DNA of 64,000 bases from Promethearchaeota archaeon (GTDB lineage Archaea > Asgardarchaeota > Heimdallarchaeia > Hodarchaeales > Hodarchaeaceae), in assembly GCA_048938105.1 (NCBI GenBank), contig JBHLMN010000002.1, positions 1 to 64,000 of the forward strand, read 5' to 3'. The notes beneath the pieces were generated by a model, which saw only the letters and a list, made by a program, of their open reading frames with translations, made no database searches and was not told where the DNA came from. This document shows, piece after piece, positions 31,070 to 32,939 of the stretch. Position 1 is the stretch's first letter. Each line of letters begins with the position of its first letter. The position numbers and the translations under genes were made by a program.

Positions 31070-31912
31070 CTAAAAGAATTCTCTAAGACTCATTTGTCTT
31101 CTTATGTATTTATCTGCGTTTTCAAATCCTTGTGCTGGTATATTCTCTTTTGTGAATATTTTTCGAAGAGCAATAGCGTCATTTATAGCATAACCAGAGA
31201 ACCTATTGTTAATAAGGACGAAAATAGTATCATACGGTTTACTAAGCCGTATAATTTTTCGAGACCAGTCCTTTCTTTCTTGTTTCTTTTCCAGGAAGAA
31301 TTTTCCAAGTTTCTCATCTGGAATGATCCTCCGATCACCAAGAAGACGAATGTAATACAATGATATGTCTTTATTTCTATATTTATCAGGAATATTTAGC
31401 ATAGTCGTCTCAGCTAATGTAATAGCCTTTTCACTAAGTAGATCTTTAAAATCGTCACTGAACCATGATTTATTCCGAATCTCTAGAACTATTTGGCCTG
31501 AGAAATGACCCGAGCACTTATCAAGTACTCGAGATAAATAAGAGAGTGTTTCAGGAGTTTTACGGAGACTGGGAGGAAATTGGACTAAAATCACTTGTAA
31601 TTTCTCTTCAAGCCTCGCCAAACGAGTAAAAAATTCGGTTATTTTATCTAACTTTGAAGCGAGGCGTGTGTGCCTTCCTGAGTGGGTCACTTCCCTAATA
31701 AGTTTTGCACTAAAGATGAAATCATCAGGAGTGGAGTGATACCATCTCTGAACCATGTGTTCTGAAGGGATGTGATAAAATGTGTTATTTATTTCATTTA
31801 ATTGAGAATAATGACTATAATACTCGAGCTCATTGAGATTCTCAACGTCCCTTGGATAAAACGTACCACGCCAATGGGGATATGACCACCCTGCAGTTCC
31901 TAGATAAATCAT
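31070..31912 (-). CDS. DUF72 (YecE-like) protein
   Basis: IYLGTAGWSYPHW.G.FYP, EINNTFY..P, W...TPDDF.FSAK, LVQFPPS and EIRNKSW. Confidence 0.92.
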   Translation of the reverse strand: MIYLGTAGWSYPHWRGTFYPRDVENLNELEYYSHYSQLNEINNTFYHIPSEHMVQRWYHSTPDDFIFSAKLIREVTHSGRHTRLASKLDKITEFFTRLARLEEKLQVILVQFPPSLRKTPETLSYLSRVLDKCSGHFSGQIVLEIRNKSWFSDDFKDLLSEKAITLAETTMLNIPDKYRNKDISLYYIRLLGDRRIIPDEKLGKFFLEKKQERKDWSRKIIRLSKPYDTIFVLINNRFSGYAINDAIALRKIFTKENIPAQGFENADKYIRRQMSLREFF

Positions 31913-32085
31913 TACTAAATGAACAACGTTATTTTAGTATATATAATGTTCGATTCCCTATCTATATATTGCACTAAAAAATCCTTTAAATGAACTATTT
32001 AATAACTTTCTTCTCAGAGTTTCTCCCCAAATCGAATTTATGATGGTTTGAACCTAAAAAAAAGAGGAATTGTGGGAATTTTGTT

Positions 32086-32148
32086 TTATTTTTTCTGTTT
32101 AGATTTTGCTTGTGTTTTTTTCTTTGTTGCTTTCTTTTTCTTTGCCAT
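32086..32148 (-). CDS. Unannotated 20-aa lysine-rich micropeptide
   Basis: MAKKKKATKKKTQAKSKQKK*. GGTGA RBS just upstream of the ATG, and an oligo-T terminator-like run about 20 nt downstream. Confidence 0.55.
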   Translation of the reverse strand: MAKKKKATKKKTQAKSKQKK

Positions 32149-32260
32149 TCTTTTTCACCATAAAGTATATCTTTCGTTATTATTCAAAAAAAATCTTCTT
32201 ATAACTCTCTCCTATTCATATGATTTGCGAAAGTTAATATTCTCATCTATTACTTGTTAA

Positions 32261-32392
32261 TTAGGCATCTTCTTCGTAATATTCGTCGTCATCTTCTGAC
32301 CAGTCGTCTTCTTCGTCATCCCAGTCTTCATCATCCCAATCATCCTCTTCCTCTTCTTCTTCTTTTCTCTTGTTTTTTGGGCCGAATTTCAT
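32261..32392 (-). CDS. Unannotated 43-aa hyper-acidic micropeptide with three DW repeats
   Basis: MKFGPKNKRKEEEEEEDDWDDEDWDDEEDDWSEDDDEYYEEDA*. Mixed synonymous GAA/GAG/GAT/GAC codons indicate coding sequence rather than a microsatellite. Confidence 0.75.
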   Translation of the reverse strand: MKFGPKNKRKEEEEEEDDWDDEDWDDEEDDWSEDDDEYYEEDA

Positions 32393-32939
32393 GGTTGGTT
32401 AATCCCTTTTTTTGCTATATCTGGATTTTTTCAACTTACGGACAGTTTAACCTAATTTGGGGAAAATCTGACCATAAAAAACGTCTGAATATTCATATAT
32501 TTAAACCTTTACAATTTAATATGCTGTCATCTAAAGGAGACTCTTCTTAAATCGGAATCTTATAATATTTCTTGTAACATTTTCTATTCAACCTTGTTGT
32601 AATTTTCTCAAATCGAGTAATTCATGACCCACATTCAAAATTTGGATTTATTTATACTAGACTCAATAAATATATCGACACTCATAATAAGAGATGTAAT
32701 TAATTTTTGGTTTATGAAGATGATACGAATATAGTTCTAGCATATTCATCTAGCAAAATGATGTTATCTAATTACTCTGTCCTTGTTAAAACTAGTATAA
32801 TTTTATTTTATCAAATTATTTATTTGATTTCTAATCCTAATATAATGATAAAGAGAACGTTATCAGATGTTATGTCTATTGAATTTTAAATTACCTGGGT
32901 ATAGTTCAAAGGATAAACACAAGAGATGTACTTATTAAA

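Follow-up and report, generated by a model that had tools for sequence, protein, structure and literature searches.

Two candidate microproteins of opposite charge, encoded side by side in a Hodarchaeales archaeon and its genus

Layout of the locus and signs of coding

On the minus strand of the window (the whole stretch of 64,000 nucleotides that was analysed) two small ORFs follow each other closely, one for an acidic peptide with three tryptophans and one for a peptide that is rich in lysine. The genome to which they belong, called the host genome or G000 here, measures 5.85 Mb with ~35% G+C and is 99% complete as judged by marker genes; the sequencing runs with this organism are from sediment and mangrove DNA, and reads from four DNA runs gave identical or very short contig pieces only and no informative variants. 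The features at the locus, from the putative promoter onward and ending with two ORFs on the opposite strand, are these:

32498..32505, minus strand: putative TATA-like box TTTAAATA, with AAAGG before the box, ~108 nt upstream of the ATG of the acidic ORF
32461..32487, minus strand: leader block CAGACGTTTTTTATGGTCAGATTTTCC of 27 nt, within the presumed 5' UTR of the acidic ORF
32261..32392, minus strand: acidic-Trp microprotein gene, 43 aa, net charge ~-21, basic N-terminus MKFGPKNKRK
32149..32260, minus strand: spacer of 112 nt with conserved blocks AGATGAGAAT and GGAGAGAGT
32159..32155, minus strand: GGTGA Shine-Dalgarno sequence, 6 nt before the ATG of the 20-aa ORF
32086..32148, minus strand: polylysine microprotein gene, 20 aa, net charge +11
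32063..32056, minus strand: oligo-T run, T8, 22 nt past the stop of the Lys-rich ORF
32254..32550, plus strand: shadow ORF of 98 aa
32048..32260, plus strand: shadow ORF of 70 aa

The acidic ORF (32392..32261, minus strand; MKFGPKNKRKEEEEEEDDWDDEDWDDEEDDWSEDDDEYYEEDA) has 26 Asp/Glu and five Lys/Arg among its 43 residues, with Trp at positions 19, 24, and 31; the basic ORF (32148..32086, minus strand; MAKKKKATKKKTQAKSKQKK) has 11 Lys and no Asp/Glu among its 20. These values, together with the 112-nt gap, the ribosome-binding site, and the oligo-T run, agree exactly with the original prediction, which had described a tandem microprotein pair hidden beneath antisense shadow ORFs, and the overlapping shadow ORFs are present as well. 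A CitMHS transporter gene lies upstream of the pair and a DUF72 gene (31912..31070) downstream.

With the archaeal BRE/TATA consensus as the ground for reading it so, we infer that the TTTAAATA box may be the promoter of the two-gene unit; the box is near-invariant in an alignment of three loci with the same gene order (type A, below) from G000, G003, and G014, the last of which has different flanking genes. The leader block is almost unchanged in the same three genomes despite the differing flanking genes and is unique in the genome when up to three mismatches are allowed; its consensus fold is weak and lacks a covariation term. The acidic ORF of the window carries no canonical Shine-Dalgarno (SD) sequence; the GGTGA before the Lys-rich ORF would base-pair with the 3' end that is usual for archaeal 16S rRNA. 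Oligo-T termination is known in archaea, and the T8 run, which is kept as T8-T9 in G003 and G014, is likely the terminator of the unit.

Coding constraint was assessed by codon position in the three-genome alignment of type-A loci. Since the entire intergenic DNA of G003 is ~85% identical to that of the window, the comparison with G003 alone is weak. The acidic ORF differs from its G003 counterpart by indels of 3 and 9 nt that preserve the frame, and across the three genomes its variable columns number 6/41, 3/41, and 20/41 at codon positions 1, 2, and 3 (Fisher p = 8e-6). Start and stop are conserved, and in the family of 13 homologues (alignment A5) P5, W19, W24, and D26 are invariant, as are the TGG codons. 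For the Lys-rich ORF the corresponding counts are 6, 6, and 7 of 21, with no third-position bias; only its N-terminus and composition are kept, MAKKKKxTKK being invariant in type-A loci. The original prediction had set this basic peptide against an overlapping alternative frame, MVKKNGKEK..., which proved to be open only in G000, G003, and G014 and to be startless or closed in all other modules, so that the basic peptide outlasts a rival frame that is not conserved beyond these three genomes. The antisense ORFs shift in frame, length, and start from locus to locus and are not conserved.

These data also bear on whether the locus is translated at all: GA-rich and A-rich sequence keeps several frames open, and in the three closest genomes the non-coding flanks show good conservation too, as would be expected if the purine-rich frames were open through a lack of stops and the conservation were that of an RNA or DNA element. 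This reading is scarcely probable, however, given the strict GAN periodicity with third-position variation, the invariant Trp codons, the ATG and SD held at fixed spacing across loci without common flanking DNA, and the lack of conservation in the other frames and on the antisense strand; moreover, the fold is weak, Rfam returned zero family matches at the locus, and a reversed control pattern has no match in 399 genomes (below). Judged from the sequence, both ORFs behave as genuine, separately initiated microprotein genes, with coding constraint shown for the acidic ORF. That annotation would overlook the pair was correctly foreseen: the genes are conserved and separately initiated, and the exact sequences of seven peptides occur nowhere in a collection of 15 billion proteins. 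The window peptide is present unaltered in the ESM Atlas, where the other look-alikes are unnamed and score <=0.78.

The module in the genus and in the rest of the genome

Twenty-one genomes of the genus were surveyed by protein, profile, and pattern searches of relatives. Nine of them carry modules, with 16 acidic-Trp ORFs counted, and the other 12 gave zero match with the patterns used, a patchy distribution. Fifteen of the 16 acidic-Trp ORFs have between one and three Lys-rich companions, ORFs of 19-24 aa that lie ~10-125 nt away on the same strand; the sixteenth, which is unpaired, is truncated by a contig end. All modules share the same polarity, an acidic peptide with a basic one, and the acidic and Lys-rich ORFs form a dedicated pair. 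Three arrangements occur:

Type A, acidic then basic: the window, G003, G014, and one G018 locus
Type B, basic then acidic: contig C39 of the host genome, G018, twice in G011, and tandem pairs in G001 and G016
Type C, MKPPKKKKKVE... with several basic ORFs: G015 and G009

The modules vary in gene order, spacing, number of basic ORFs (1-3), and neighbours, the flanks including genes for DUF72, DUF6144, an ICMT-like methyltransferase, an ABC transporter, ApbA, a zinc-binding alcohol dehydrogenase, and SAVED-domain proteins. Because the flanking genes differ so widely, the pair is held together while its surroundings change. The synteny with DUF72 that had been suggested as a check does not hold for the genus, for the pair lies beside DUF72 only in the nearest relative of the window, G003.

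The same variation weighs on a role in cis, in which both ORFs would be leader peptides and ribosomes that stall or are destabilized on Asp/Glu, or slide on AAA-Lys codons, would regulate a downstream gene such as DUF72. Acidic runs and AAA lysine runs do perturb elongation in bacteria and eukaryotes, and the next gene downstream of the unit in the window starts 174 nt away in the same orientation. The unit is, however, separated from DUF72 by the conserved oligo-T run, an interval that in G003 also contains an insertion of 106 nt, and the gene downstream of the type-A unit changes from DUF72 (G000 and G003) to DUF6144 (G014). In type B the downstream gene is convergent, which leaves nothing to regulate. 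With no conserved gene downstream, and a convergent one in many cases, a leader-peptide role is highly unlikely.

The host genome contains a second, paralogous module (C39:235647-235878, which is L054:1392-1623) in the order opposite to that of the window: the basic peptide MTEKEKKPKTKKPRAKKTKK is followed after about 45-46 nt by the acidic peptide MKKAPKRKVPQKKPIYEEEEEEEEEDWEDEDDEDWDDEDN, a GGTGA SD precedes both ORFs, and a hairpin follows the stop codon. A gene for a SAVED-domain protein (C39:234109-235335; L054:1-1080) is found directly upstream, as it is for three basic-then-acidic modules in all (G000, G018, and G011; also L039:115-984 and L055:2-991); only the SAVED part of these proteins matches models of Cap4-like CBASS effectors.

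Against the background of the genome both modules are rare. Among all 76,023 ORFs of 18-100 aa, two reach 45% or more Asp/Glu; these are the acidic-Trp peptides of the two modules, and in either module the neighbouring Lys-rich ORF has a strong GGTGA SD. Small K/R-rich ORFs with an ATG number 116 genome-wide, six of them with a GGTGA/AGGTG SD, and the probability that a K/R-rich ORF falls by chance within 200 nt on the same strand is P = 0.004, or 0.0002 if an SD is required. Within the genus GGTGA/AGGTG precedes 12 of ~15 Lys-rich ORFs vs. 1.3% of random ATGs; ~12% of long ORFs carry such an SD before a start within their first 60 codons. The pairing of acidic and Lys-rich ORFs is more than chance gives.

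Some neighbours of the modules encode proteins of chromatin or transcription. Histone genes adjoin the module in G015 and G018, that is, in two of ~16 modules. A non-canonical TFS paralogue stands beside the module in G015, G018, and G009, an arrangement that the host genome does not share; of the three TFS-like genes of the host, the C38 gene alone is canonical, and another forms part of a locus (C27:211939-212628; L204:940-1629) in which a histone with a short Lys tail (MTKKPKRKAGF...) is followed at once by a TFS paralogue without the catalytic SADE hairpin. It is the orthologue of this C27 TFS gene that the modules of G015, G018, and G009 adjoin. The TFS linkage is a lead only.

Similar peptides in other archaea and in viruses

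Relatives outside the genus are recognized by low-complexity similarity and gene context only. The pattern [DE][DE]W[DE]4W[DE][DE] was matched in 52 of 399 Asgard genomes, and its reverse, used as the control, in 0 of 399; a scan of all species has many archaeal small ORFs among the matches listed. In other Asgard families the acidic-Trp micro-ORFs often lie beside a Lys-rich micro-ORF (e.g., acidic, then MAKKKKGGTKK...), and they often adjoin members of one homologous basic family of 267-286 aa with a pI of 10.2-11.3 and no Pfam domain. Loci of this family are:

L074:3405-4244 and L095:4-822: members of the basic family
L253, L254, L264, L265, L276, L279, and L280: members that are neighbours of acidic ORFs

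Very basic partners thus accompany acidic-Trp ORFs in several lineages. Neither tblastn nor an HMM run over all six-frame ORFs detected a member of this basic family (~275 aa) in the host genome, and the genus therefore carries a two-part version.

A different context is seen in TACK archaea, where ABCE1 is directly preceded by an acidic-Trp ORF of the same orientation at all four loci with usable context (two from Thermoprotei, two from Bathyarchaeia). These TACK ORFs consist of (E/D)nW repeats, are 24-36 aa long, and lie near a THUMP-domain gene (L059:4324-6753, L099:1-2186, L093:1892-3897, and L101:1-1869); between the acidic ORF and ABCE1, both Thermoprotei genomes also have a gene for a ~100-aa protein that combines an RPB9-type zinc ribbon with an acidic tail. 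The position of the TACK look-alikes upstream of ABCE1 points to translation rather than chromatin.

In a translational reading the target of the two microproteins of the window would be the translation apparatus, in place of chromatin or of one another, and they would be encoded together only for co-expression. A ribosome-associated factor would be docked or mimicked by the acidic-Trp peptide, much as by the N-terminal acidic Trp motif of eIF3j/Hcr1, which cooperates with ABCE1, and the Lys-rich peptide would be an rRNA- or ribosome-binding filler. The peptide does resemble the acidic Trp motif of eIF3j/Hcr1, in which a Lys-rich stretch comes after the motif, and the strong SDs fit highly expressed genes. 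The contact of eIF3j with the RRM of eIF3b is reported to centre on a conserved Trp of the acidic N-terminal domain (PMC2824034), and eIF3j sits with ABCE1 on 43S complexes (PMC7780240). On the other hand, neither of the two ABCE1 copies of the host genome has an acidic ORF upstream, and no model of eIF3j, DSS1, or any other family is matched. The TACK peptides, moreover, are without the basic N-terminus and are putative relatives of the window family at most, and the strict pairing with a polycation is left unexplained. We regard this reading as unlikely.

The Thermococcaceae have a peptide of ~50 aa with Trp at its end, for which the strict pattern MQPPKKKKKVEEFEEE...W...W was matched in 47 of 81 genomes. 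It occupies a fixed position between a gene of ~260 aa (no Pfam match) and moeA; the host genome has a homologue of the ~260-aa neighbour (C54:7981-8802), with no microprotein beside it. The loci of these apparently unannotated microproteins are:

L229-L252, L132, and L104: Thermococcaceae microprotein loci, with a second copy in some genomes

Type C of the genus and the Thermococcaceae peptide have nearly the same N-terminus, and hhalign aligns the two over nine N-terminal columns only, at 96% probability. Common descent of the two is plausible on this likeness. In homologous-protein searches the family alignment gave one marginal match of 64 aa and the Thermococcus peptide none.

Viral contigs (IMG/VR) encode a recurrent protein of 64-67 aa in which a CxxC...CxxC zinc ribbon is joined to a C-terminal EDDWDEDDWDD tail, unpaired with a Lys-rich ORF. 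The contigs concerned are:

L285, L292, L293, L303, L305, L326, L330, and L332: viral zinc-ribbon/acidic-Trp proteins

The viral and Thermococcaceae loci are relevant to a further proposal, that the module is a conflict or addiction pair, in which a toxic polycation that binds nucleic acids or ribosomes would be held in check by an acidic antidote and the pair would spread as a mobile or defence-island cassette. Such a role is possible, if distinctly improbable, because the distribution is patchy, tandem copies occur (G001 and G016), and SAVED neighbours are present, three type-B modules lying directly downstream of a gene with this sensor domain of CBASS and type III CRISPR systems; the variable contexts and the one to three basic ORFs per acidic ORF would also suit a cassette. 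With respect to type II toxin-antitoxin systems, a two-gene unit is present, and the acidic peptide, the only one of the two that was scanned, matches no family model. Yet no known toxin fold or motif is found, the viral contigs contained no comparable acidic/basic pair, and the SAVED neighbourhood may be simple orthologous synteny, while the Thermococcaceae look-alike keeps to one fixed chromosomal position as a housekeeping gene would.

A polycation with an acidic partner, compared with known systems

The explanation that best accounts for the locus, which we hold tentatively, is that one of its two microproteins is a polycation resembling a histone tail and the other, acidic and aromatic, its binder or antagonist. 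The pair forms a unit of its own, read as an independent two-gene transcription unit made up of TATA box, leader, acidic ORF, spacer with SD, Lys-rich ORF, and oligo-T run, and both products, opposite in charge, would be intrinsically disordered. The 20-aa polylysine peptide (+11) would be a free-standing polycation, like a histone or H1 tail, that binds nucleic acids or other polyanions, and the 43-aa acidic-Trp peptide (~-21) would be its dedicated binder, able through electrostatics and Lys-Trp cation-pi contacts to hold, buffer, or displace the polycation; the acidic peptide would probably handle other very basic proteins too. The cellular target would be chromatin or the ribosome and its RNA. 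We infer from the sequence that both ORFs are translated and that the peptides bind each other. The idea of a nucleic-acid-condensing peptide with an acidic chaperone, put forward in the original prediction, is plausible in view of charge, aromatic content, and the strict co-occurrence with basic partners.

The host genome encodes many archaeal histones, which together with its eukaryote-type actin mark it as Asgard, and it has ten histone-fold regions, none of them at the Lys-rich ORF of the window. One tailed histone (C42:168783-169040, minus strand) begins with a 19-aa N-terminal tail, MAKKKTPAKKAAPKPAKGE, before the histone fold, and the free-standing Lys-rich peptides closely resemble this tail. 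That likeness, together with the modules beside histone genes and a non-canonical TFS paralogue in G015 and G018 and the Lys-rich histone tails documented in Asgard archaea, favours a link to chromatin. Several points weigh against an acidic binder of a histone-tail-like polycation: the Lys-rich ORF is without third-position bias, the acidic ORF of the window has no canonical SD, the distribution in the genus is patchy, histone neighbours are few, and the TACK look-alikes precede ABCE1. A predicted complex of a histone dimer with the acidic peptide scored 0.01, a result that gives no support and counts neither for nor against binding.

A wider reading would see in the Lys-rich peptides Asgard polycations that are histone tails only, served by a dedicated acidic-aromatic chaperone or antagonist that foreshadows the acidic-chaperone logic of eukaryotes, and in the acidic-Trp peptides an ancient archaeal family servicing very basic nucleic-acid-binding proteins; as a whole we consider this improbable. 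Should the peptides be made and bind, they would represent a conserved, genetically linked system of polycation and polyanion microproteins in the closest prokaryotic relatives of eukaryotes, which could bear on how disordered partners came to chaperone basic proteins, histone-like or ribosomal, by charge, and on the regulation of Asgard chromatin or translation. The system would also be cheap to test, with peptides of 20 and 43 residues that are accessible by chemical synthesis, and the Thermococcaceae, with their conserved look-alike, include genetically tractable members. More generally, strict composition filters can recover real microprotein families from purine-rich 'non-coding' DNA.

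The acidic peptide of the window and seven relatives had zero Pfam matches in hmmscan, the acidic-Trp peptides had none in NCBIfam or the PDB, and in the literature we found no paper on the peptide sequences or on a paired acidic-Trp/polylysine module. Some known proteins can be set aside by their features. The LysW/ArgW carriers have Zn-ribbon CxxC pairs and a C-terminal tail of the EDWGE type; no Cys is present in any of the 13 family members, the C-termini differ, and neither NCBIfam nor Pfam gives a match. Ribosomal proteins of the eL41 type, of ~25 aa, are Arg/Lys-rich with an MRxKWxKKR motif, and the Lys-rich peptide of the window has neither Arg nor Trp. The host genome has a separate eL41-like ORF of 22 aa, MRNKWKKKRLRKRKRKERRRTR (C9:155634-155702, minus strand), among only five strongly basic small ORFs from the composition filter.

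DSS1/Sem1 is small, disordered, acidic, and Trp-bearing, and acts as a DNA mimic that docks to basic surfaces or to OB folds. The acidic peptide is like it in being a small acidic protein with Trp, but differs in its basic N-terminus and its polylysine partner gene; PF05160 is unmatched by the window peptide and its seven relatives at E up to 0.01 and even up to 10, and the motif order and C-terminal helix of DSS1/Sem1 are absent. With eIF3j/Hcr1 (PF08597) the peptide shares an acidic stretch around a conserved Trp, whereas eIF3j/Hcr1 has ~260 aa with a folded, helical C-terminal half vs. 43 aa in the window; there is no Pfam match, archaea lack eIF3b, and the host genome shows no ABCE1 linkage.

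The acidic (A) region of WASP-family proteins, to which the original prediction had likened the peptide as a docking motif for Arp2/3, is again an acidic stretch with Trp, and the host genome encodes a full-length eukaryote-type actin (442 bits). The analogy finds no support: the peptide has no WH2 domain, no C helix, and no Pfam match, and it has three Trp vs. one near the C-terminus in the WASP CA region. To our knowledge, Thermococcales lack actin and Arp2/3. Since similar peptides occur in Thermococcaceae and in TACK archaea, an Arp2/3-specific role is unlikely.

Asgard tailed histones of the HLoB type come closer to the basic peptide, MAKKKK.TKK... resembling their Lys-rich N-terminal tail; the microprotein, however, ends at 19-24 residues, in the window after 20 with no histone fold following, so that it is not itself an archaeal histone, and the similarity is one of low complexity that may be convergent. 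Tailed histones with Lys-rich tails, along with modifying enzymes, have been documented in Asgard archaea (bioRxiv 10.64898/2026.07.02.735847).

For the pair as a whole the nearest parallel is prothymosin-alpha and H1. The two microproteins likewise carry large opposite net charges (~-21 and +11) and are probably disordered, and by analogy a Lys/Ala/Thr-rich, histone-tail-like polycation would be held or displaced by its polyacidic partner. Prothymosin-alpha is not known to contain aromatic residues, whereas the acidic peptide of the window has periodic Trp as well as a basic N-terminus. There is no sequence relationship between the two systems, and the sizes differ, at 20 and 43 aa here vs. 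roughly 110 and 200 aa; the window peptides, in addition, are encoded side by side, and in a prokaryote. The case of H1 and prothymosin-alpha establishes that disordered polyelectrolyte pairs can bind tightly (PMC7661507, PMC10576128).
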